In this document: positions 1,967 through 33,127 of the stretch, one piece after another
Numbering within the stretch: the first letter of the stretch is position 1
Layout of the letters: every line of letters starts with the position of its first letter
NCBI GenBank assembly: GCA_040905905.1
Contig: JBBDQN010000057.1
Location: 165 to 64,164, forward strand
Direction: 5' to 3'
Length of the DNA stretch: 64,000 nt
From: Acidimicrobiia bacterium
Lineage (GTDB): Bacteria > Actinomycetota > Acidimicrobiia > Spongiisociales > ZC4RG35
The notes under the pieces: model-generated
What the model saw: the letters and a program-made list of their open reading frames with translations, nothing else
Told to the model about the DNA's origin: nothing
Databases searched by the model: none
Position numbers and translations under genes: made by a program

Positions 1967-2922
1967 CGATGCAGCCTCGGATCGAGGGCGTCGCGGAGCC
2001 CGTCACCCAACAGGTTGAAGCCCAGCACCGTGAACATGATGGCCAGGCCCGGGAAGAAGACGAGATGGGGAGAAGAGAAGACCTGATTGCGATCGGCGCC
2101 CAGCATCGATCCCCACTCCGCCGTAGGTGGTTGGGTTCCGAGGCCGAGGAACGAAAGACCGGCAGCCTCGAGGATTGCCCCGGCGATTCCCAGAGTGCCG
2201 AGGACCACGAGGGGGGTGAGGGCGTTAGGGATGATCCGGCTCAACAGAATGCGCCAATTGGAAGCGCCGAGCGCCCTGGAGGCGGCCACAAAGTCCATCT
2301 CCTTGATTTGGAGGACGGAGGCTCGCATCACCCGGGCATATTGAGGGATGGTGACAATGGCGATCGCCAGCAAGGCGTTGGTCAAACCGGGACCGAGCAC
2401 CGCCACGATGGCGATGGCCAACAGCAAGGCCGGGAAGCCGAGCACTACGTCCATAATCCGCATGATGACGTTGTCGATCCAGCCGCCCCAAAACCCGGCA
2501 ATAGCGCCGAGCAATGCCCCGACCACTATTGCCGACGTCACCGTGACGATGCCAATGGTGAGGCTCACCCGGGCTCCGTAGACGATCCGCGAGTATTCGT
2601 CGCGGGCGTTGCCATCGAGACCCAGGAAGTGTTGGGGACGTTCAGCCGGGCAACCGAGCGCATGGATACATGGCGCCTCCCGTCGCTGGATACCGGGCTC
2701 CTCCCCAAGCAGACCCCGGGTAGGGTCGTGGGTGGCGAGCAGCGGTGCGAATAGTGCTACCAACACCCAGAAGCCGATGATGATGAGGCCGGTAACGCCC
2801 GTGCGGCGACGCAGGAGCCTGCGAAAGCCACTCTTCCACACCGACACCGGGCGTTCGAGGAACCGGATCTCCTGGGCCATAACCTCGAACTCTTTGACCT
2901 TTTCGCGAGGGGTGCCGATCAT
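1963..2922 (-). CDS. oppC: Peptide ABC transporter permease (OppC/DppC-like).
   Basis: The C-terminal part of track ORF 1963..3354 matches permeases (PLLATHDP..., ABC TM region). I trimmed the start to the ATG at 2922 (MIGTPREKVKEF...). That ATG makes an ATGA overlap with the oppB stop at 2919-2921. The upstream 144 aa of the track ORF are Arg/Pro-rich junk. Confidence 0.85.
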   Translation of the reverse strand: MIGTPREKVKEFEVMAQEIRFLERPVSVWKSGFRRLLRRRTGVTGLIIIGFWVLVALFAPLLATHDPTRGLLGEEPGIQRREAPCIHALGCPAERPQHFLGLDGNARDEYSRIVYGARVSLTIGIVTVTSAIVVGALLGAIAGFWGGWIDNVIMRIMDVVLGFPALLLAIAIVAVLGPGLTNALLAIAIVTIPQYARVMRASVLQIKEMDFVAASRALGASNWRILLSRIIPNALTPLVVLGTLGIAGAILEAAGLSFLGLGTQPPTAEWGSMLGADRNQVFSSPHLVFFPGLAIMFTVLGFNLLGDGLRDALDPRLHR

Positions 2923-3998
2923 TCGAGCCTGATCCTCGGGTCGAGATATGCGTACGAAACGTCCACCGCCAGGTTCACCAACACATACCCGAACGCGATA
3001 ACGAAGGTGAAGCCCTGGATCACGGCGTAGTCGCGGGCAAAGATGGCATCCACCAGGGCCCGTCCCACTCCGGCCAGGCTGAAGACACTTTCGGTCAACA
3101 CCGCTCCGCCCAGCAGAAGACCAAGTTGAAGCCCCCCGATCGTTACCACCGGCAGGAGCGCATTGCGCAGGGCGTGTCGGCTTACCACCCGGCGTTCGAC
3201 GGCACCTTTGGCCCGGGCGGTTCGCACGTAGTCGGAACCGAGCACTTCCAGGAGGGACGATCGGGTGATGCGGGCGATGATGGAGAGGGGGATGGTGGCA
3301 AGAGCCACTGCGGGAAGAATCAAGTGTTTGATGGCGTCGCCGAGGATCGCCCACTGACCGGTGATGATCGTGTTGAAGATGAAGAAGTTAGAGACGAACT
3401 CCAGCACCGACCCCCGGATGGTGTCGGGCTGGGCGGTCCATCCCCACACTTCATAGAAGGGGATCGGGCTCGTTCCGGCGCTCAGCCGGCCGGAGGGGGG
3501 CAGCGAAAAAGGGGTGTCCTTGAGAACGAGGGCAAACAGATAAGCGAGCATCAGCCCCAGCCAGAAAACCGGCATGGACACGCCGACATTGGCGACCGCC
3601 ATCGTGCCGACATCGACCGCGGTGTTGTGGCGCATAGCGGCAAAGATTCCTAGCGGGACTCCTACGAGCAGCGCCAGAGTCAGGGCAGCCGTCGACAGTT
3701 CGATGGTCATGGGCAGGCGTTCTATGAGTATCGACATGACCGGACGCGATGACCGGACCGAATCGCCGAGGTCGAACTGGAGCAGTCGCACCATGTAGAT
3801 GCCGAGTTGGACCGGGACCGGCTCATCGAGTCCGTTGACCCGGTTAAACGTGTCGCAGGCCTCCTGGGTTGCCCGTTCACCGAGCATCGATCGGCATGGA
3901 TCTCCCGGAATCGCTCTCACCAGCAGGAAGACAACAACCACGATGCCAAGCATCACCGGGATTGCGAAGAGCAGGCGACGGAGGAGAAAGTTGACCAT
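2919..3998 (-). CDS. oppB: Peptide ABC transporter permease (OppB/DppB-like).
   Basis: MVNFLLRRLLFAIPVMLGIVVVVFLLVRAIPGDP is the typical N-terminus of this family. The protein is polytopic with an EAA-type loop. Confidence 0.9.
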   Translation of the reverse strand: MVNFLLRRLLFAIPVMLGIVVVVFLLVRAIPGDPCRSMLGERATQEACDTFNRVNGLDEPVPVQLGIYMVRLLQFDLGDSVRSSRPVMSILIERLPMTIELSTAALTLALLVGVPLGIFAAMRHNTAVDVGTMAVANVGVSMPVFWLGLMLAYLFALVLKDTPFSLPPSGRLSAGTSPIPFYEVWGWTAQPDTIRGSVLEFVSNFFIFNTIITGQWAILGDAIKHLILPAVALATIPLSIIARITRSSLLEVLGSDYVRTARAKGAVERRVVSRHALRNALLPVVTIGGLQLGLLLGGAVLTESVFSLAGVGRALVDAIFARDYAVIQGFTFVIAFGYVLVNLAVDVSYAYLDPRIRLE

Positions 3999-5873: not shown

Positions 5874-6725
5874 TCAAATAAGGTGTTGGTAGCTATCCGG
5901 CTGAGCGGTCAGGAACTCTTCCAAGCTCAGGGGTGGGCGGCCTGACACAGATTCGACGTCGTGAGTCACCGTCTCCATTTCCCCGGCTGCGATAGCCAGG
6001 TACGACGAAACCCAACCTTCCACCTCGAAGGCGGGAGCGTTGTAAACGGCCCGCGAGGTGTATGCCTCTTCCTCGGTCTCGGGTTGGTAGCTAATGGCGC
6101 GGCCAGTGGCCTGACCGAGGATGGCGGCGACATCGTCCAGGTTGAGGTTCTCAGGTCCAGTCAGACGGTAGGTCTTGCCGTCGTGTTTGTCGTCAAGCAG
6201 AACCGCGGTTGCAACCCCAGCGATATCTTCCCGGGCAACACCACTGAACCTGCCGTGTCCAGCCGGAGCACGGATCACCCCGTCCGGTCCCGGGAAGTAG
6301 GGGAGGACATCGAGATAGAGGTTGTCTCTGAGAAAGACGAACCGGAGACCAGAAGCGCGGATGTGCTCCTCGGTGTACCAATGCTGGCGTGCGAGGGTAA
6401 AGGTGGCATTGGACGCGGCGCCAAAAAATGATGTGTAGACGACCCGTTCAACTCCGGCCCGGACTGCCGCATCGATGGCTGTCTTGTGTTGATCGAGACG
6501 GTCGGCGGCCTCACGGCCCGAGACCAGGAACAACGTTGCGGCGCCATCAAGGGCGCTCTTCATCGCCCCGCCGTCCGCATAGGCTGCCTCCGTCACGGTG
6601 GCATCGGCCAGAGCTGGGGCGCGATCCGCCCGCCGGCAGATCAAACGTTGCTGGATCCCGAGGTCGGCCAGACGATGGGCAACCAGTCCTCCCAGAGCGC
6701 CTGTCGCTCCCGTAACCGCGATCAA
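5874..6725 (-). CDS. NmrA-like/atypical SDR NAD(P)H-binding oxidoreductase.
   Basis: MIAVTGATGALGGLVAHRL is a Rossmann GxxGxxG N-terminus. It is about 283 aa, in line with NmrA/SDR-a family proteins. Confidence 0.7.
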   Translation of the reverse strand: MIAVTGATGALGGLVAHRLADLGIQQRLICRRADRAPALADATVTEAAYADGGAMKSALDGAATLFLVSGREAADRLDQHKTAIDAAVRAGVERVVYTSFFGAASNATFTLARQHWYTEEHIRASGLRFVFLRDNLYLDVLPYFPGPDGVIRAPAGHGRFSGVAREDIAGVATAVLLDDKHDGKTYRLTGPENLNLDDVAAILGQATGRAISYQPETEEEAYTSRAVYNAPAFEVEGWVSSYLAIAAGEMETVTHDVESVSGRPPLSLEEFLTAQPDSYQHLI

Positions 6726-7408
6726 GCCGTTGATGGTGCTGAACCTCCCTGCGACAACAACGACACTACTTCCGCATCTGAGGTGGGCGAGAAGTCGCCG
6801 TAGAACTCTCCGATCGAGAGAAAACCGGCGGGGGCTGCCAGGAAGACGACCTCGTTGGCGATGTTTGAAAGCAGACGAACCGCTTCCGGTGAGGCGACGG
6901 GTGCGGCCACCACAACCTTTCGGGCTCCGAGTTTTCGCACCACCTCGGTTGCAGCCCGAGCAGTCGATCCGGTGGCGATCCCGTCGTCGATTACGAGTGC
7001 CGTCGCTCCGTTGAGGTTGAGGCGGTCCCGCCCCCGACGGAACTCCACCGCTCGGCGTGCCAGTTCGACGCGCTCACGGTCTTCAACCAGGCGGATCTGG
7101 GCCTCGTTGACGCCGGCCGTACTTATCACCCGGGCATCGAGCACCCGGACCCCATCCTCGCCGATGGCTCCCATCGCCAGTTCGGGTTGATAGGGAACAC
7201 CGAGCTTGCGGACGACGATCACGTCGAGAGGGATGTCGAGGGCTCTTGCCACTTCGTACGCGATGACAACGCCGCCCCGGGGCAGCCCCAACGCAACCGC
7301 ATCTTGTAGATCGAGTTTCTCTAGCCGGCTGGCCAGCCGGCGCCCTGCCTCGACGCGATCACGAAAGTACAAAGCAACCCGGGATGATATGGGTCCGGGC
7401 ACCGCCAC
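6722..7408 (-). CDS. Predicted phosphoribosyltransferase (type I PRTase fold). The start is uncertain.
   Basis: ALYFRDRVEAGRRLASRL...LPRGGVVIAYEVARAL...VIDDGIATGSTARAA is a PRPP-binding loop. The track start at 7480 would overlap the divergent gene. GTG at 7408/7402 or TTG at 7372 are more likely starts. Confidence 0.6.
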   Translation of the reverse strand: MAVPGPISSRVALYFRDRVEAGRRLASRLEKLDLQDAVALGLPRGGVVIAYEVARALDIPLDVIVVRKLGVPYQPELAMGAIGEDGVRVLDARVISTAGVNEAQIRLVEDRERVELARRAVEFRRGRDRLNLNGATALVIDDGIATGSTARAATEVVRKLGARKVVVAAPVASPEAVRLLSNIANEVVFLAAPAGFLSIGEFYGDFSPTSDAEVVSLLSQGGSAPSTA

Positions 7409-9306
7409 AATGGCTCCCCGTGACTGTTTCCCCCCACACGATCGCGATCGCCATCGTGGTCGCCCTGGTGCCGCTGGCATTCGACCCGGGGGGCATGTTC
7501 CCTTTCGGACCGATCAAGTGGGTGCTGGCGACTGTCGGGGTTTTCGTCGCAACCGCCCTCCTGTTTCAACAGCCTGAAATTCGAGTCCATCGAACGAGTG
7601 CCATCGGCTGGGGCGCCTTCCTGGTTGTCGGTGCGATGTCTGCGGTGGCCGGACTGGATCCCATCCATGCCTGGCTCGGGACTCCGGACCGTCACCTCGG
7701 CATGGTCGCCTATCTGATATTCGGACTTGCCTTTCTGGTCGGACAGAACATCGACGAAGATCGACAGTTGCTCGGCCGCGCAGCCGTGGTGGGGCTCTCC
7801 GGCATCGGTGTCTACGCATTAGCCGAACTCACGGGGGTGGCTCCAGTTTCGCTGGCCATTGCCTCGGACCGGCTAGGTGGCCCGTTCGGGTCACCCTCCT
7901 ATCTCGGGGCGGCGTGTGTCCTGCTGGTCCCCATTGCATTGGGTGTTGGCTTCGACGTCGACCAATCCCGCCGATGGCGAGCCACTGCCTTTCTGGCAGC
8001 AACGACGGGGCTCGGTGCTCTCATCGGCAGCCAGTCCAGGGCCGCCTTGATCGGGCTCGCGGTCGCGGTGGCGTTTTTGGTTCCCATCGTGACCCAACGG
8101 CGGGTCGCGGTTCTTGCCGGCATCACCCTGCTAGCTGGGGCTGTGCTGTTGACCCCGGCCGGAGCCCGTCTGCTCGAGCTGGCGGACGTCAACTCTTCCG
8201 ACTCCCGGGGCCGACTCGACGAGTGGAGAATTGGTGTCCGCGTGCTGGTCGCCCATCCGATTCTCGGGGTCGGTCCCGAGGGGTATCGGATTGCGTTTCC
8301 GGCTGCAGTCGATGCTGATTACGAGCGCCGCTATACGCGGCAGGTGACACCCGACCGCGCCCACAACGGGCTCCTCGACTCGGGGATTTCCATAGGCGTT
8401 TCCGGGCTCGTCCTGTACTCCGCCGCTCTCGGATGGTTAGCGGTGAGAGGCCTGCGAGCCACGCGTACCGGGGCTCCGACCCTGATCGGGATCGCCGCCG
8501 GTGTTGTCGGCTACCTCACCCACCAGCAGTTCCTCTTTCCGCTGGCCGAGGTCGATCCGGTCCTCTGGGTCATGGCCGGCTCTCTGGTCAGGGCCACCAA
8601 CGGTCCAGGGGCGACGATGGTTTGGCACCGGTCTCGAACGATCGCGTTTGCCGCCGGCGCCATCGGAGTCCTTGTCTTGACTATGGGTTCGCTCGAACTC
8701 GTCGCCGATCGTCGGGCCGCCCGCTCATACCAACTTCTCGGTACCGGTGCCTACGCCGCCGCGGTGGCTTCCGCAGACGGCGCCGCTCTGCTCCGGCCGG
8801 ACTCAATCCGCTATTGGTTTGTCGCCGCCGATGTTGTGTCCCGGCCAGGCACTGCTGATGGCATGGCCGCGGCGCTGCTGCGGGTCGACCGAGCCCTGAT
8901 GGTCTCTCCCGATGACCCCATCCTCCTGGCCACTAGTTCCCGGCTGCTGCTCGATCGCGCCCAGGTGACCGGATCAAGCAGCGACCTTGGCCTCGCCCTC
9001 GTTGCACTTTCCGAGCTGATTGCCAGCGACCCCAACAATGCCGGTCACCGTTTGTCGCTCGGTTTGGCGCTGGTGCTGGCAGGAGATTTGGAGGGCGCTG
9101 AACGTGAGTGGTTGATCAGTCAGGACCTGGCTCCCGGTTCGGCGGTGCCCTCGATCAACCTGGCCCGTCTGTACCTGGAGCAAGGTCGTCTGGCAGAGGC
9201 CGAGGCCTCTTATCGCCGGGCTCTTTCTATCGATTCGTCGGCGCCAGGTCTGGTCGATCTGGCGAACCAGTTGGTCGCGGTCGGACGGGAAGTCCCGTTA
9301 CCGTGA
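7384..9306 (+). CDS. O-antigen ligase (Wzy_C) family polytopic membrane protein with a C-terminal TPR-repeat domain.
   Basis: Multiple TM segments and a GSQSRAALIGLAVAVAFLV-type Wzy_C core. C-terminal TPR-like repeats (LGLALVLAGDLEGAEREW...LARLYLEQGRLAEAEASYRRAL). An alternative GTG start lies at 7420. Confidence 0.65.
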   Translation: MIWVRAPPQWLPVTVSPHTIAIAIVVALVPLAFDPGGMFPFGPIKWVLATVGVFVATALLFQQPEIRVHRTSAIGWGAFLVVGAMSAVAGLDPIHAWLGTPDRHLGMVAYLIFGLAFLVGQNIDEDRQLLGRAAVVGLSGIGVYALAELTGVAPVSLAIASDRLGGPFGSPSYLGAACVLLVPIALGVGFDVDQSRRWRATAFLAATTGLGALIGSQSRAALIGLAVAVAFLVPIVTQRRVAVLAGITLLAGAVLLTPAGARLLELADVNSSDSRGRLDEWRIGVRVLVAHPILGVGPEGYRIAFPAAVDADYERRYTRQVTPDRAHNGLLDSGISIGVSGLVLYSAALGWLAVRGLRATRTGAPTLIGIAAGVVGYLTHQQFLFPLAEVDPVLWVMAGSLVRATNGPGATMVWHRSRTIAFAAGAIGVLVLTMGSLELVADRRAARSYQLLGTGAYAAAVASADGAALLRPDSIRYWFVAADVVSRPGTADGMAAALLRVDRALMVSPDDPILLATSSRLLLDRAQVTGSSSDLGLALVALSELIASDPNNAGHRLSLGLALVLAGDLEGAEREWLISQDLAPGSAVPSINLARLYLEQGRLAEAEASYRRALSIDSSAPGLVDLANQLVAVGREVPLP

Positions 9307-9353
9307 ACCGATTGACTGCCTCAGGCGTGTAACAGGAGACCGAGGGAGGGCAG

Positions 9354-10610
9354 ATGAGCAGACGGAACCTGGTGGTCGGGTTGTTGGGCGCGGCAGCATT
9401 GGCCGGGCTGATCTGGGCCGCGGTCGTCGCGGTCCCGATGCTGACAGGCGAGCTGACCGCCTCCACCCCTCCCGGCGGCCGCCTGGCGGCCACCCCGAAC
9501 GTGATCGAGTCCAACCTGGTCTGGTCCACCGGCGACGGCACCATCGGAAGCTATGTGACCACTGCCTCCGTCTTCGGGAACGACGGTTTCATCTACGCCC
9601 TCTCCACTGCCCCCGGAGTCCGCGATATGGGCTTCGGTGTGCCGGTGGAGCACGCCGTCTACCGGTCCCAGGACGGCCTGGAGTGGACCCATGAGCTTCT
9701 GGCCGGGTTCGGTGCCGACCTGTATCCCCGCGACATCGCCTTCTCCGGCCCCAACCTCTACCTGGTAGGCACCGCTCCCAGCGCGGTCGACCCGTCCCGG
9801 GCGGTGGTCCGGGTGGGCACCTCGGCCGATTCTGGCCACACCTGGGAGGCAGTCGACCTCGAGGTGGCCAACCAGGGTGGCGACCCTGCCGTCGCCTCGG
9901 CCGGATCGATGATTACCGACGTTGCGGCCAATGGAATCGGGACGGTGGTGGGGGTGACCAGTGGGCATCAGTTCGACCAGTTCAACCCATCCAACGTGGC
10001 GCTGTACGTGGGCGGGGGTCCCCTCGGGTTCGAATCGACCGACACACCATTCGCCTCCGGCCATGCGCTCGACAGGCTGGCGGCTACACCAGACATGTTC
10101 TATGCCGTGGTGAGAGCACCCGGGTCCAACCTGCTCGACCTTTGGCAGTCCTCCGATGGCCGGCAGTGGGATCAACTGGAAAACTTCCCTTTCCTCGACT
10201 CGGTTCTCGCCTTCGGACCGATTGGCCAGCGACTTGTTGTGGCCGGGCAGATGGAGGGTCAGCTCGTGGTGGGTGCGACCCTCAACGGTCTCCAATGGGA
10301 CGAGGTGGATCTAGTGGACCTGGTGGCACCGGTTGTGGCCGGAAACCAATGGGTCTCGGCGGCGGGGATCGGACCTGCCGGGCTCTATCTAAATGTGCAA
10401 ACCTGGTTTCCCAACAGCGGGCCCGACGGCGGGGTAGAGGTGGCGCAGTTGGTCGAAACTCCCGACCTCAGCAACTGGTCGTCGATCCCAACCGGCAGTA
10501 TCTCTCAGGGTTTTGTCGACCAGGTGATCGTCGGAGACGACTTCGTGTTCGTCAACTCCACCACCGGACTCATCCAAGGAAGGGTGCACCTAATCGGCAC
10601 ACGGGCGTAG
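9354..10610 (+). CDS. Membrane-anchored BNR/Asp-box repeat protein (sialidase/glycosidase-like beta-propeller) of unknown function.
   Basis: N-terminal TM segment. Three Asp-box motifs, SQDGLEWT, SADSGHTWE and SSDGRQWD (S-x-D-G-x-x-W). A GGGAGGG RBS precedes the ATG. Confidence 0.6.
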   Translation: MSRRNLVVGLLGAAALAGLIWAAVVAVPMLTGELTASTPPGGRLAATPNVIESNLVWSTGDGTIGSYVTTASVFGNDGFIYALSTAPGVRDMGFGVPVEHAVYRSQDGLEWTHELLAGFGADLYPRDIAFSGPNLYLVGTAPSAVDPSRAVVRVGTSADSGHTWEAVDLEVANQGGDPAVASAGSMITDVAANGIGTVVGVTSGHQFDQFNPSNVALYVGGGPLGFESTDTPFASGHALDRLAATPDMFYAVVRAPGSNLLDLWQSSDGRQWDQLENFPFLDSVLAFGPIGQRLVVAGQMEGQLVVGATLNGLQWDEVDLVDLVAPVVAGNQWVSAAGIGPAGLYLNVQTWFPNSGPDGGVEVAQLVETPDLSNWSSIPTGSISQGFVDQVIVGDDFVFVNSTTGLIQGRVHLIGTRA

Positions 10611-27857: not shown

Positions 27858-28334
27858 ATGAGGACTGCACTCTGGGGGCTGGCCTTCCTGGTGATTGGTG
27901 TGGCGGCGAGTTTCGCCATCGGCCAACAGGAGGCGACCTCGGCCGATCCCTGTCGGTACGGAGCGGTAAGTTCAGCCTTGCTACCTCCCGAAATGACTCC
28001 GGAGCTTGAAGTGATCTCAACCGAGTCCAAAGAGGAACTGCTTAACACCCTCGCCAGCTTTTACACCAGCGGGCCAGCACCTGATGGAACTTTGGCAGGA
28101 GTAACAGCCGCCCTGAGTCGAATACCAAACAACACCGATCGTTTCGCTCAGGCCCAGGTGAACATACCCGAGGGCACCGTCGCCTTCATCGACAATGCTG
28201 GAAATGAACTAGCCAAAGTGACGATCATCGAGTTCAAAGGCCGCTGGCTGCCCATACATTCGGACGTGTGCGAAGCCACGCCTGGTGCCTCAAGGTTCGA
28301 GCTTCTTGGTTTGTACGTAGAGGACAATTCATGA
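27858..28334 (+). CDS. Small secreted hypothetical protein (signal peptide, 2 Cys) in a lower-GC segment.
   Basis: MRTALWGLAFLVIGVAASFAIGQQ is a signal peptide. There are many A/T-ending codons, and local GC drops to about 50% towards the 3' end. No recognisable domain. Confidence 0.45.
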   Translation: MRTALWGLAFLVIGVAASFAIGQQEATSADPCRYGAVSSALLPPEMTPELEVISTESKEELLNTLASFYTSGPAPDGTLAGVTAALSRIPNNTDRFAQAQVNIPEGTVAFIDNAGNELAKVTIIEFKGRWLPIHSDVCEATPGASRFELLGLYVEDNS

Positions 28335-28453
28335 GGCGTGTCCGAATAATCTGTACTTCTATTCGCATTTGTTCTTATGCGGAGAGCGGCCTCGACTTGG
28401 CGGGTCTTGGTTAAGGGTCCGCTATAAACATCGAAGACTTCGTCTCTTCTCGA

Positions 28454-28529
28454 GGGCCGGTAGCTCAATGGTCAGAGCAGCGGACTCATAATCCGTTGGT
28501 TGCAGGTTCGAGCCCTGCCCGGCCCACCA
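28454..28529 (+). tRNA. tRNA with anticodon CAT (elongator tRNA-Met, or a tRNA-Ile2 that would be lysidine-modified). CCA is encoded.
   Basis: Cloverleaf folded by hand. Acceptor GGGCCGG/CCGGCCC, D-stem GCTC/GAGC, anticodon stem GCGGA/TCCGT with loop CTCATAA, and T-arm GCAGG-TTCGAGC-CCTGC. G1-C72 is paired, so it is not an initiator. Confidence 0.9.
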
Positions 28530-29143
28530 TGACCACAGTGAGTGCAATTGAGGCCCGCATCCTCGGGGTGCTAGTGGAGAAACAGATGACCACTCCCGAC
28601 ATCTATCCGCTCACACTGGCCGGCGTGGTGGCGGGAAGCAACCAATCCACCAACCGTGACCCTGTGATGTCAGTGAGTGAAAGGGAGGCCGAGGCCGCCT
28701 TGACTCGGCTCCATGAGATCGGATTGGCGACACCGGTTCGAAGGCCTGCCGACCGGGCCCTCAAGTATCGGCACAAGCTCACCGAAGCGCTGGAGCTCGA
28801 TCAGCCCACGCTGGCGGTGTTGGCTGTGCTTCTGCTCCGTGGACCGCAAACGGTTGGTGAACTGCGCCAACGCACCGAGCGCTACGTGACGTTCGACACC
28901 ATCGAAGACGTCGAGCGGATCGTCGACCGCCTCGAAGAGTTAGATCTGGCCAGGCGTCTAGCCCGGCAGCCGGGTCAGAGCCAGCGGCGCGTCAAGGAAC
29001 TCATGTCGGATGGCGGCACAGATGTCGACCAAGCACACACGCCAACAGTTGACGTGGGGACCAATGAGCTTGAAATACGTGTTGCCGCGCTGGAAAAGCG
29101 CTTCGACGAACTCTTACGCAGACTTGGTGTGGACGACTTATGA
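28529..29143 (+). CDS. YceH/DUF480 (UPF0502) family protein.
   Basis: MTTVSAIEARILGVLVEKQMTTPDIYPLTLAGVVAGSNQSTNRDPVMSVSEREAEAAL aligns closely with the E. coli YceH N-terminus. The homologous start ATG at 28529 shares its A with the tRNA 3'-terminal CCA. The track's TTG at 28496 would lie inside the tRNA. Confidence 0.8.
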   Translation: MTTVSAIEARILGVLVEKQMTTPDIYPLTLAGVVAGSNQSTNRDPVMSVSEREAEAALTRLHEIGLATPVRRPADRALKYRHKLTEALELDQPTLAVLAVLLLRGPQTVGELRQRTERYVTFDTIEDVERIVDRLEELDLARRLARQPGQSQRRVKELMSDGGTDVDQAHTPTVDVGTNELEIRVAALEKRFDELLRRLGVDDL

Positions 29144-30244
29144 CGCTGGCGGTCCGTGGTTGTGTTGTCTTATGAGTCGTCGGCGTTGGGGTGGACTGTC
29201 GGGGTCGATCCGATAGCCGAGCCCGTGGATAGCGACATGATGATGAAACCAACACAACAGAGCCAGGTTGGTGGGGTCGTGATCGCCGCCTTGTGACCAT
29301 TCCCTGATGTGGTGGGGTTGGAGCCGATAGCGGGATCGGCAGCCGTCGATGACACAGATCCCCTGGTCCCGGTTCCACACATGCGAACGGACCGCCGGGG
29401 GGATCGTCTCTGATAGGTCGGATACTCCGATTGGCCGGCTGTCGTCACCGGCGAAGATGATCCTGACCCTCCCGGTGCAGAGAATCTCGGAGAGGGTGTT
29501 GGGTCCAGCCCGCAGTCCTGACGACAACGTCACCCCGGCTTCCCCGAAGGTGGGGGCGGCCAGGTGGGCGTCGATGAAGATCTCGGCGACGGTCACTTCC
29601 CGACCCTCGGATCCTTCCGAGCCGCCGGTGAGAGAGTCGAGACAGACCGAGGTCAATGCATCCGCCAACCGTTGGTTCCGACTTTCACCTGGAAGAGGTG
29701 TGAACCCGTCGGCCTTCTGCAACAAGGCCTTCTCCACCAGTTGACCGTCCATACCGGCCAGCAACCCCCACAGCCGCCAGGCAGATTCGTCCAGGTTGGG
29801 CTGGATCACCAGGAAACGGTCAGCAACAGTTGCGACCTCATCGGTGGCGGCGATCCGCTTGCGGGCAGCCACGAGCCGTTCCAACCCCGCCAGATCAAAC
29901 CCCAAAGACGCAGCCATCTCGGAATCGGAAGCGCCCGCCAGGCGGAGACGGGCCATCAGCACCGCCCGCTCCAACCCGATCTCCCCGGAAGCCAACAGGC
30001 CCTCCACCTTGCGGTCTTCGGCTCGGGCAAGAAACACGAGGTCCCGGGCTATCGGATGCGACACATCGAGACGGGAAGCCACCCACTCCACCATGGTCCG
30101 GGACCCGTCAGCAGTAGCTACCTGGTCGAGATCCAACCTGCGGAGAAGCTCCAACTGACGGGCCCACACCTGTCCATGGACCCGGTGGGAGACCAACAGG
30201 TCCTGTTCCAAGGTATCGATTGTCCGGTTTCCCACTCCGTACAT
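29138..30244 (-). CDS. DUF222 + HNH endonuclease domain protein (REP13E12-like family).
   Basis: C-terminal HNH motif CVIDGCRSRYRLQPHHIREWSQGGDHDPTNLALLCWFHH. The N-terminal DUF222-like region is Ala/Leu-rich. Confidence 0.8.
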   Translation of the reverse strand: MYGVGNRTIDTLEQDLLVSHRVHGQVWARQLELLRRLDLDQVATADGSRTMVEWVASRLDVSHPIARDLVFLARAEDRKVEGLLASGEIGLERAVLMARLRLAGASDSEMAASLGFDLAGLERLVAARKRIAATDEVATVADRFLVIQPNLDESAWRLWGLLAGMDGQLVEKALLQKADGFTPLPGESRNQRLADALTSVCLDSLTGGSEGSEGREVTVAEIFIDAHLAAPTFGEAGVTLSSGLRAGPNTLSEILCTGRVRIIFAGDDSRPIGVSDLSETIPPAVRSHVWNRDQGICVIDGCRSRYRLQPHHIREWSQGGDHDPTNLALLCWFHHHVAIHGLGYRIDPDSPPQRRRLIRQHNHGPPAS

Positions 30245-30983: not shown

Positions 30984-31468
30984 TCGCCCTTGCCAATCTC
31001 GGCCTCGAGAATCTCCCGATCCTCCCCGTCCTTGACAGTTGCCGCGATCCGTTGAGCTTTCTCCAAGTGTTCTCGACCTTTATCGATGTCTCCGTTGGCT
31101 GCCAGTGCCCGCGCCAAGGCTTCATGAGCAAAACCGAAGTCCCAATCCTCGACCTCCTCGGGGTTGGCGCCCGCCAGGTCCAAACACCGGCGAGCGTGGG
31201 TCAATGCCAACGCCACCTCGCCCACCCGGAGGGCGGTCCTCGAAATCAAGTGTTCGCCCCTCACTCGATTCGCTGCGGTCCCAATCTGTGTCCAGTGGTA
31301 AGCCGACGCAAAAGCTCCCACCAGTAGTTGTGTTCTCTCCTCGGCGGGACTGGTGGCGTTGGGCGAGCCGTCGTCAAGCTGGCGCCAGGTCTGATTGTTG
31401 AGTTCCACCCCAAACCATCGATGAAGGCCGGGAAGGTCATCGGGGTCGACTCTCACTGAATCTGCCAT
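30965..31468 (-). CDS. Hypothetical protein (helical, acidic), no recognised family.
   Basis: A 167-aa ORF with reasonable codon bias. It overlaps the downstream lipoprotein gene by 19 nt. Function unknown. Confidence 0.4.
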   Translation of the reverse strand: MADSVRVDPDDLPGLHRWFGVELNNQTWRQLDDGSPNATSPAEERTQLLVGAFASAYHWTQIGTAANRVRGEHLISRTALRVGEVALALTHARRCLDLAGANPEEVEDWDFGFAHEALARALAANGDIDKGREHLEKAQRIAATVKDGEDREILEAEIGKGEWFGLT

Positions 31469-31516
31469 GTGCCGAGTCTGCCACGTGCGATTCGCCGTTT
31501 AGCCTCGTTGCCTCTC

Positions 31517-33127
31517 ATGCCCGCTGACCTCATCATCGACGGTGGTCCCATCTTCAGCGGGAGCGGTCTCGAACCGGAAGCGGTTGCGATCAGGGCCGGG
31601 ATAATCGTTGCCGTCGGGAGTCTGCGAGACCTCAGAGCTGAACGCGGCCCACGCACGCAAACCCTCGACCTCAAAGGTCGAACACTGGCGCCCGGTTTCA
31701 TCGATGCTCACGTCCACCCCTTGACCGGTGGGCTGAAGCTCCTCAGGTGTTCCCTCTACAACGCCGGCAGCGCCCAAGGATCCCTCAATGCTGTCGCCGA
31801 CTACGCAGGAGCTCATCCCGATCGTCCCTGGATATGGGGTGGTGGGTGGTCGCTCAGTTGGTTCCCCCGCGGAACCCCCGACGCTGCCAGTCTCGATCGG
31901 GTAACCGGCAACCGTCCAGCGCTGCTCTACAACTCCGATGGTCACGGCGCCTGGGTCAATAGTGCCGCCCTGCGGTTGGCGGGGATCGATGCGTCCACCG
32001 CCGATCCTCCCGACGGCCGAATCGAACGGCTGCCCGATGGCTCGCCCCAGGGCACCCTCCATGAGGGGGCGATGTCACTGGTCGAGCGCCTGCTTCCGGT
32101 CGTGACGGCCGCCGAGTGGGAGGAGGCCTTGTTGGAGGGTCAGCGTTATCTCTTGTCGTGTGGCCTCACCGGTTGGCAGGATGCCGATGTAGCCCCACAG
32201 CAGCATGCCGCCTATCTGGCCGTGGCCGGGCGTGGACAATTGCGAGCGAGTGTCGTTGGAGCGTCATGGTGGGAGCGCGGGCAGGGACTAGAGCAGATTG
32301 AAAATCTCATCGCTCGGCGGGCCGAGATGGCACCCCGATACCGGGCCACTGCGGTGAAGTTGATGCTCGATGGCATCGCTGAGAACTACACCGCAGCCAT
32401 GTTTGGAAGCTATCTCGACGAACAAGGCCAAGCGACCTCGAATTCAGGGATTGAATTCCTAACGCGAGAAGACCTGCGACAAATCGTCCCGGTCCTCGAC
32501 CGCTTGGGATTCCATTGCCACTTCCACGCCATCGGCGACAGAGCCGTCCGCAACGCTCTCGACGCCATCGAAGCGACCCGCAATGCCCAATCCACCGGTC
32601 ACGGACGTCATCACATCGCTCACATCCAGGTGGTGAATCCCACCGATCGGGGGCGCTTCGCTGCCCTTGACGTGACCGCCAATGCCCAGCCGCTTTGGGC
32701 TGCACACGAGCCCCAGATGGACGAACTCACCCTGCCCTTCTTGCCGCCGGGGGCGGCGATCAATCAATACCCCTTTGCCTCGCTGCTAAAAGCAGGCGCC
32801 CGGCTCGCGATGGGTTCTGATTGGTCTGTGTCGACCGCCGATGTGATGCGCCAGATTCAGGTGGCGGTGACTCGCCGTCCGATCGATGATCGCCTGGCAC
32901 CGCCCTTCCTTCCCGACGAAGCCTTGTCGGTGGACCAGGCTCTCAAGGCGTTTACCGCTGGTTCTGCCTGGGTCAATGGCGTGGAGAACTCGGCCGGGGT
33001 CATTGCGGTCGGAAACCGCGCCGATCTCGTCATCCTCGAGGCCGATCCTCGCACTGAAACGCCGATCGGCGACATCCGGGTCGACGAGACGATTGCGGCA
33101 GGCTCGGTTGTCTATTCGCGCGGCTGA
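31517..33127 (+). CDS. Amidohydrolase-3 family metal-dependent hydrolase (YtcJ-like).
   Basis: ADLIIDGGPIF...GRTLAPGFIDAHVHP (HxH metal site) and HCHFHAIGDRAV. I trimmed the start to the ATG at 31517 to leave a divergent promoter gap. Confidence 0.8.
   Translation: MPADLIIDGGPIFSGSGLEPEAVAIRAGIIVAVGSLRDLRAERGPRTQTLDLKGRTLAPGFIDAHVHPLTGGLKLLRCSLYNAGSAQGSLNAVADYAGAHPDRPWIWGGGWSLSWFPRGTPDAASLDRVTGNRPALLYNSDGHGAWVNSAALRLAGIDASTADPPDGRIERLPDGSPQGTLHEGAMSLVERLLPVVTAAEWEEALLEGQRYLLSCGLTGWQDADVAPQQHAAYLAVAGRGQLRASVVGASWWERGQGLEQIENLIARRAEMAPRYRATAVKLMLDGIAENYTAAMFGSYLDEQGQATSNSGIEFLTREDLRQIVPVLDRLGFHCHFHAIGDRAVRNALDAIEATRNAQSTGHGRHHIAHIQVVNPTDRGRFAALDVTANAQPLWAAHEPQMDELTLPFLPPGAAINQYPFASLLKAGARLAMGSDWSVSTADVMRQIQVAVTRRPIDDRLAPPFLPDEALSVDQALKAFTAGSAWVNGVENSAGVIAVGNRADLVILEADPRTETPIGDIRVDETIAAGSVVYSRG

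Follow-up and report, generated by a model that had tools for sequence, protein, structure and literature searches.

A conserved tRNA(CAU)–DUF480/YceH gene junction in Acidimicrobiia, a candidate bacterial analogue of mitochondrial tRNA punctuation

Protein genes are transcribed together with tRNA genes in some bacterial operons, such as thrU-tyrU-glyT-thrT-tufB and metY-nusA-infB of E. coli, in which the spacers are tens to hundreds of nucleotides (nt) long and the protein gene has a start led by a Shine-Dalgarno (SD) sequence. In mitochondria, leaderless mRNAs are set free when RNase P and RNase Z/ELAC2 excise the tRNAs (PMC3790967, PMC11775629). Previous studies in mycobacteria have shown that a 5'-terminal AUG or GUG suffices for translation and that mRNAs with a leader no longer than 5 nt act like leaderless ones (PMC4633059, PMC6448022); a leaderless mRNA, of whatever origin, is accordingly taken here as one with a mapped 5' end at, or at most 5 nt ahead of, the start codon (PMC6448022). 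A full-text literature search found no description from bacteria of a leaderless mRNA that arises when an adjoining tRNA is excised. The present analysis concerns a 64-kb stretch of DNA (64,000 nt; hereafter the window) from the metagenome-assembled genome (MAG) of an uncultured Acidimicrobiia bacterium, contig JBBDQN010000057.1, in which a tRNA gene with anticodon CAU stands directly ahead of a gene of the DUF480/YceH family. The junction is made up of three elements:

28454..28526, plus strand: tRNA gene, anticodon CAU, from G1 to the discriminator A73 (ARAGORN; Rfam RF00005)
28527..28528, plus strand: CC spacer from the discriminator to the ATG, spelling CCA together with A28529
28529..29143, plus strand: DUF480/YceH-family (UPF0502) gene of 204 amino acids, start ATG 28529-28531, stop TGA 29141-29143 (Pfam PF04337)

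The DNA across the junction reads ...CCCGGCCCA CC ATG ACC ACA GTG... (over a longer stretch, ...GGTTCGAGCCCTGCCCGGCCCA-CC-ATGACCACAGTGAGT...), with the discriminator A at 28526, two Cs, and then the start codon A28529-T28530-G28531. The initial annotation, made from the sequence of the window, had a tRNA(CAT) ending at 28529 and a protein gene opening at this ATG, and ARAGORN, Rfam and the DNA itself agreed with it in both coordinates and sequence. The tRNA is the only one in the window (ARAGORN span 28454-28529, anticodon CAT); it forms a cloverleaf and matched RF00005 over 28454-28526 with 75.9 bits, well over the gathering score of 29, along the whole model (1-71 of 71). Its locus is intact and uninterrupted, and a second copy of the tRNA 3' end, as an attachment (att) repeat would be, was not found in the window.

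When orthologous loci were compared, as the initial annotation had proposed, the same juxtaposition was found in L084 (protein 77% identical) and L087 (74%). Both carry the identical tRNA, a single C and then the same ATG (...CCCA C ATG), so that the gap between tRNA and ATG is 1 nt there and 2 nt in the window, and all three loci show the spacing of zero to a few nucleotides that characterizes tRNA punctuation. The flanks of L084 and L087 are syntenic with those of the window on both sides, with a PAS/HisKA hybrid kinase gene and an HD-GYP response regulator gene upstream and a 167-amino-acid gene and an Amidohydro_3 gene downstream. The tRNA sequence is identical at 73/73 positions across the window, L084, L087 and L216, and the synonymous divergence (dS) of the DUF480 gene reaches 0.65-1.9 while the junction persists in the window, L084 and L087. 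Because the same junction was kept while the gene diverged to this extent, the abutment is, as judged by this comparison, old and inherited, and neither a product of chance nor an assembly artefact.

The product of 28529-29143 matched the full-length DUF480 domain (PF04337, profile 2-149 of 149 on residues 5-150; E = 3.5e-50, 170.4 bits against a cut-off of 25), in agreement with the YceH-like gene that had been annotated. A total of 5674 homologues at E <= 1e-10 bear the source names DUF480 or YceH family, and the NCBI record of the same MAG contains the identical 204-amino-acid product (P0001). A functional study of DUF480/YceH was not found in the literature. The start codon was examined by comparing the first 25 codons of ten orthologous loci from public assemblies. 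ATG 28529 was invariant (10/10 loci), codons 8-15 (EARILGVL) showed zero amino acid change with two to three synonymous codons each, and the pairwise differing codons within codons 5-19 were 274 synonymous vs 112 non-synonymous. Since codons 5-19 differ mostly synonymously and residues 8-15 are invariant, the stretch ahead of Met20 appears to be translated; moreover, residues 5-19 are part of the Pfam domain and under purifying selection. An in-frame TGA lies four codons ahead of the equivalent ATG in L088. A start of the orthologues at the internal Met, which the initial annotation had named as the finding that would overturn its reading, was not seen, all ten loci keeping ATG 28529, and by these comparisons ATG 28529 is the true start.

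Three other start codons on the plus strand were tried and rejected. TTG 28496..28498, at which the mechanically called open reading frame (ORF) begins, lies within the functional tRNA and is in frame in the window only, being out of frame in the orthologues because these have one base fewer ahead of the ATG. This TTG had been assigned to the T-arm of the tRNA, but it occupies tRNA positions 43-45, in the last part of the anticodon stem and in the variable loop. GTG 28538..28540 (codon 4) is GTC in the other loci (9/9). ATG 28586 (Met20), which has the form GGAG-N6-ATG (28576..28588), has GGAA in L084 and TGAA in L087 in the place of GGAG, and other members of the family have R, V, A or K where the window has Met20. 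Gene callers that bar contact between coding sequences and tRNAs, or that extend ORFs into tRNAs, will mis-start genes of this kind.

The start codon had also been described as sharing a nucleotide with the 3' CCA of the tRNA, giving a leader of zero length. The window does spell CCA with A28529, but the extra C is present in the window only. At the spacer position the orthologues have a single C (L084, L087, L212 and L082) or an A (L213), and the intact tRNA of L216, to which the gene is not adjacent, reads ...CCCA CAAATCC. The discriminator A is thus followed by CCA in the window, by CAT in L084 and L087 and by CAA in L216, and no consistently genome-encoded CCA was found. Because L084, L087 and L216 read C or CAA after the discriminator, the gene for this tRNA does not, on this comparison, carry the CCA in the lineage. 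Among the matches listed from a metagenome scan were several tRNAs that have an identical anticodon-stem sequence, and these mostly lack CCA. By the same comparison, the CCA of the window consists of one extra C and the A of the ATG, and the one-base overlap is incidental; the overlap being window-specific, the expected leader is therefore 1-2 nt and not zero. A tRNA gene without CCA has a 3' end that must be made by an endonuclease cut at or just past the discriminator, followed by CCA addition.

The tRNA was labeled tRNA-Met by ARAGORN. When it was compared with the tRNAs of E. coli, seven of the eight best matches listed were tRNA-Ile and one was tRNA-Lys, and the aligned tRNA-Ile match, with a CAT anticodon and about 80% identity, had C4, C5, G68 and G69 in common with the tRNA of the window. 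The pairs C4-G69 and C5-G68 are presumably determinants for TilS. The tRNA(CAU) is probably a tRNA-Ile2 of the lysidine type rather than a tRNA-Met, as judged from these matches. Initiator tRNA-fMet was ruled out, given that G1-C72 is paired and the anticodon stem is GCGGA/UCCGU (no 1:72 mismatch and no three consecutive G-C pairs). An Rfam match to the 'Plastid-ycf2 5'UTR' on the minus strand of 28454-28527 was dismissed, with 41.6 bits below the gathering score of 65.7, as the antisense of a trnI-CAU-like tRNA; it gives incidental support for the Ile2-type identity.

As had been stated in the initial annotation, the tRNA and the gene, which are 2 nt apart, leave no room for an intervening promoter or SD, and no terminator-like site was found between them in the scan. 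A NANNNT hexamer 5-8 nt ahead of the ATG was not found in the window, L084, L087, L216, L212 or L213. The window accordingly has no -10-like hexamer ending about 6-8 nt ahead of the start, as genes of the transcriptional leaderless type have, and on the sequence side an independent promoter at the junction, the other finding that was to overturn the earlier reading, did not appear. The more distant members of the clade with 'MTTV...' proteins have no tRNA ahead of the gene. Among these tRNA-less orthologues, L085 and L090 have CAGAAT or CACAAT, and L088 and L215 have TGAAAT, in each case followed by 6 nt and the ATG, a spacing that in sequence is that of actinobacterial promoters with their transcription start on the ATG itself. 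The ATG follows the end of a NUDIX gene by 4 nt (L085) or 6 nt (L090), and an ECF sigma-factor gene lies upstream in L088, with which L215 shares its upstream sequence. The tRNA-less orthologues most probably use the promoter-derived leaderless mode, and the DUF480 gene is best seen as one that looks leaderless elsewhere and for which, at the present junction, the end of the tRNA gene replaces the promoter. Orthologues at 59-63% identity have a longer N-terminus, with a clear GGAGGA in L001 and at most a weak AGGGA-type SD in L002.

Leaderless-type starts were found for 17 of 51 called genes of the lineage against a background of 11%, which bears out the earlier remark that leaderless translation is common. 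SD sequences (defined as GGAG, GAGG or AGGA at -18 to -4) are rare, being present in 5 of the 41 called genes of L216, L087, L085, L088 and L084; since genes without SD are the rule in the lineage, the lack of an SD is not evidence in itself. At 31466-31519 of the window, a divergent TPR-like gene of 167 amino acids (minus strand, start 31468) and the Amidohydro_3 gene (ATG 31517) are separated by 48 nt (31469-31516). In this interval one strand has TGGCAGACT and the other TAGCCT, standing 6 nt and 11 nt, respectively, ahead of the ATG; both are kept in L216, L087 and L084, and both genes are, from these signals, probably leaderless or nearly so.

Upstream and downstream of the junction, two further features bear on the transcription unit:

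28335..28453, plus strand: AT-richer intergenic stretch, candidate promoter and 5' leader of the tRNA-DUF480 transcript, recognized by a drop in G+C content (GC)
29138..30244, minus strand: HNH/DUF222 endonuclease gene, convergent, overlapping the DUF480 stop by 6 nt (Pfam HNH 2.5e-06, DUF222 5.7e-04)

The GC of the upstream stretch is 0.46-0.49, compared with about 0.6 around it. The promoter scan returned one weak sigma-70-like match, AGGACA-18-AATAAT at 28321-28350, which lies partly in the stretch; such sites were no more frequent than in shuffled sequences. The HNH/DUF222 gene occurs at the same place in L084 and is absent from L087 and L216, a distribution by which it is a mobile insertion. 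Because this convergent gene bounds the transcription unit, the tRNA and the DUF480 gene form a two-gene unit. In the predicted processed mRNA the first 6 nt are unpaired and the 5' region does not exceed shuffled sequences in structure (z = 0.15). The joint fold of tRNA and mRNA was uninformative, its minimum-free-energy structure lacking the cloverleaf (z -0.7). In that co-transcript fold the 5' acceptor strand GGGCC of the tRNA (28454-28458) pairs with GGCCC in codons 8-10 (28552-28556), a pairing that is probably without meaning (z = -0.7).

From this anatomy we infer an expression route that modifies the one first proposed, namely co-transcription followed by RNase Z and RNase P processing to a leaderless mRNA. 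The DUF480 gene would have no promoter of its own; a promoter upstream of 28454 would drive it as part of the tRNA precursor, in which it would form the 3' trailer, read-through of the tRNA gene being the simplest source of its mRNA. An endonuclease cut, made after A73 if RNase Z acts or between the two Cs if the enzyme is of the RNase E type, would free the 3' end of the tRNA, whose CCA would be completed by the CCA-adding enzyme. The same cut would leave a 5'-monophosphate mRNA that starts with CC-AUG or C-AUG, i.e., with a leader of 1-2 nt, and this near-leaderless mRNA would be translated by the leaderless (5'-terminal AUG) pathway that is common in Actinomycetota. RNase P, which had been included in the earlier proposal, would have no part in making the 5' end of the mRNA, and an encoded CCA, as spelled in the window, would normally hinder RNase Z; RNase Z remains plausible because the orthologues lack an encoded CCA. 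The mycobacterial RNase E cuts at RN↓CNU (PMC10641625), which A-C↓C-A-U of the window matches, the arrow marking the cut. CCA is missing from 53 of the 65 tRNA genes of S. coelicolor, and those that encode it are mostly cut between the Cs (PMC4681348). Co-transcription with the tRNA and an RNase Z or RNase E-type cut to a near-leaderless mRNA is the best reading of the locus, and we hold it with moderate confidence. The wider proposition is put forward more tentatively: mitochondria-style tRNA punctuation in a free-living bacterium, in which a single 3' cut in pre-tRNA-Ile2 would yield both the tRNA and an effectively leaderless YceH-family mRNA, would tie synthesis of the protein to the transcription and maturation of a single-copy decoding tRNA, and would have been kept over a dS above 1 in a clade of Acidimicrobiia.

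Three remnant lineages have only the 3' part of the tRNA ahead of the same ATG. The remnant is about 46 nt long, from the anticodon stem on, in L082, L083 and L216, about 31 nt, with weaker similarity to about 43 nt, in L213 and L214, and 9 nt in L212. Pairwise ratios of non-synonymous to synonymous substitution rates (dN/dS) were 0.08-0.19 throughout, the remnant loci being like the intact ones (0.086 for L212 vs L213, which carry different remnants), and selection on the DUF480 gene showed no relaxation in the remnant lineages; for the gene of the window, dN/dS was 0.09-0.12 against the other members. In L216 an intact tRNA stands 4 kb upstream of the DUF480 gene, and the 3' half of the tRNA occurs three times (5966-6016, 6818-6868 and about 9955-10001), flanking islets of 0.85 and 3.1 kb (region 5940-10001) with SnoaL-like, guanylate cyclase and 5'-nucleotidase genes. 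Direct repeats of the tRNA 3' part, as in tRNA-targeted islands, are thus present, and an adjacent integrase is not: no integrase Pfam family was recorded among the genes between the repeats of L216, the one remnant context examined. These repeats are, by their sequence, the signature of insertions into the tRNA gene, and the insertion hot spot is bounded on its right by the conserved DUF480 gene. A tRNA-Ser(cga) reported by ARAGORN at 6819-6905 of L216 was rejected as a false call on the middle copy. The long-read contig of L216 also has exact duplications of 80-85 nt and a 63-amino-acid DUF480 fragment at 9616-10214 (= L081 2616-3214); these duplications are probably an assembly artefact, since the short-read L082 and L083, from the same species, lack them.

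When 80 genome loci with more distant DUF480 genes were examined, L004 was the only one in which a tRNA abuts the gene. At 2921-3000 of this Gaiellaceae locus, as a second independent case, a single T separates a tRNA-Gly(CCC) from a downstream CTG that corresponds in the alignment to the GTG at which the DUF480 orthologue of L005 starts; no canonical start is in frame inside the L004 tRNA. In L005 (1751-3000), a 1.2-kb PD40-repeat gene lies between the tRNA and the DUF480 gene, the start of which has the form TAGCCT, 9 nt and GTG. The metagenome scan, with the tRNA 3' end as DNA pattern, gave no new tRNA-DUF480 junction among the matches listed, which were unrelated tRNAs from many phyla (tRNA-Tyr, tRNA-Lys and other CAU tRNAs). 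A mechanical ORF of at least 100 codons starts within -1 to +8 of six of the 106 such tRNA ends listed. These six were set aside: the four that were translated are rich in Arg, Ala and Ser and look off-frame, and a fifth has its start in a terminator-like hairpin, a judgment reached with no Pfam scan made.

Several points weigh against a route through tRNA processing. Most directly, L212, L213/L214 and L082/L083/L216 keep, as far as their sequences tell, an intact ORF under purifying selection behind tRNA fragments only. Because these lineages keep the gene with no intact tRNA, recognition of the RNase P/Z type is not required there and tRNA processing is not an obligatory route; as the relatives indicate, the processing route is not indispensable. 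They must express the gene from read-through or other transcripts lacking an SD, and the same could hold in the window. In other bacteria an encoded CCA, such as that of the window, disfavours RNase Z. The stretches ahead of the tRNA in four orthologous loci could not be aligned with one another and yielded no conserved promoter. In addition, a 5'-monophosphate end may make the mRNA short-lived. SD-independent initiation on longer RNAs must be common where SDs are this rare (5/41), and it could serve the DUF480 gene, which leads to an alternative that we regard as unlikely: initiation at the same ATG, independent of an SD, within longer RNAs (the unprocessed precursor, a read-through transcript or an RNA cut elsewhere), to which the 3' processing of the tRNA would be irrelevant. 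The three lineages in which purifying selection acts on the gene behind tRNA fragments and same-strand island genes fit such internal initiation, as do the scarcity of SDs and the weak structure of the ATG-proximal coding sequence. At the intact loci, however, an acceptor stem of seven G-C pairs ends 2-3 nt ahead of the AUG, inside the stretch that must be single-stranded in the 30S subunit, and the precursor would be a poor template; moreover, the trailer with its AUG is necessarily released by every tRNA molecule that is matured.

The other alternatives would do away with the cut or with the junction itself. A promoter could lie inside the tRNA gene, with a hexamer of the anticodon loop as its -10:

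28487..28492, plus strand: CATAAT, -10-like hexamer in the anticodon loop, read from the sequence; candidate fortuitous internal promoter

Transcripts from this promoter would carry a leader of some 30 nt comprising the T-arm and the 3' strand of the acceptor. CATAAT fits the NANNNT and NNNAAT hexamers ahead of leaderless-type genes in the lineage, and it is still contained in the remnants of about 46 nt of L082 and L216, whose first bases lie just upstream. The hexamer has neither a -35 nor a TG extension, however, did not come up in the promoter scan, and owes its sequence to the function of the tRNA (anticodon CAU with A37 and A38); its leader would be SD-less and contain the T-arm hairpin, and L213 and L212, whose remnants lack it, still keep the gene. 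An internal promoter is on balance improbable. That translation starts elsewhere, at TTG 28496, GTG 28538 or ATG 28586, and that the abutment is an illusion of annotation, could be argued from the opening of the mechanical ORF at the TTG and from the GGAG 6 nt ahead of ATG 28586, but this is contradicted by the comparative data (the invariant ATG 28529, GTC at codon 4, the GGAG that is not kept, the Pfam domain from residue 5 and the stop codon in L088) and can hardly be credited. Equally hard to sustain is a silent accident, by which a rearrangement or an assembly error put an unexpressed gene beside the tRNA: tRNA genes are hot spots of rearrangement and integration, as the islets of L216 illustrate, and the source is a MAG, but assemblies made independently from different samples share this junction, with both flanks syntenic, and the dN/dS of 0.09-0.12 is that of a gene under selection. 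Co-transcription with the tRNA and a cut at its 3' end is the reading carried into the comparison with described systems.

The tRNA-mRNA operons of bacteria resemble the present locus in that a protein gene downstream of a tRNA is co-transcribed with it and separated by processing; they have long, SD-containing spacers, whereas the spacer here is 1-2 nt. Island insertions at tRNA genes leave att repeats of the tRNA 3' part, and the three copies of the 3' half that flank the islets of L216, like the shorter remnants of L213 and L212, are of this kind; unlike such islands, the L216 islets contain no integrase gene, and the locus of the window is uninterrupted and has no second copy. An insertion into the tRNA gene would sever a gene such as this from its source of transcription, which makes the remnant loci a natural test. 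The leaderless mRNAs produced by MazF in E. coli (as cited in PMC3848588) likewise derive from longer RNAs that are cut immediately 5' of the AUG, but MazF, a toxin induced by stress, cuts at ACA to leave a 5'-OH, whereas a housekeeping cut of tRNA maturation would act here. The promoter-derived leaderless mRNAs of Mycobacterium, Streptomyces and Cutibacterium (PMC4633059, PMC6448022, PMC3848588) share the AUG at, or a few nucleotides from, the 5' end and the lack of an SD. In these, a -10 fixes the transcription start and the 5' end carries a triphosphate, whereas the window has no -10 and the end would be a monophosphate processing product; because this -10 is missing, the gene of the window is, judged by its upstream sequence, not a member of the promoter-derived class.

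The closest likeness is to mitochondrial tRNA punctuation, with which the locus shares a tRNA abutting the coding sequence (0-2 nt) and would share an mRNA 5' end made by the 3' cut of the tRNA and leaderless translation (PMC3790967, PMC11775629). It differs in that the present case is one junction in a free-living bacterium and not a genome-wide arrangement, is known from sequence alone, and belongs to a lineage in which relatives tolerate the loss of the intact tRNA. If the processing route is true, the locus would be a bacterial case of tRNA maturation making a leaderless mRNA, and it would link leaderless translation in Actinomycetota, the 3' maturation of CCA-less tRNA genes and the tRNA punctuation of mitochondria. 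Rather than a demonstrated mechanism, the arrangement is a conserved and testable candidate for a bacterial analogue of mitochondrial tRNA punctuation.

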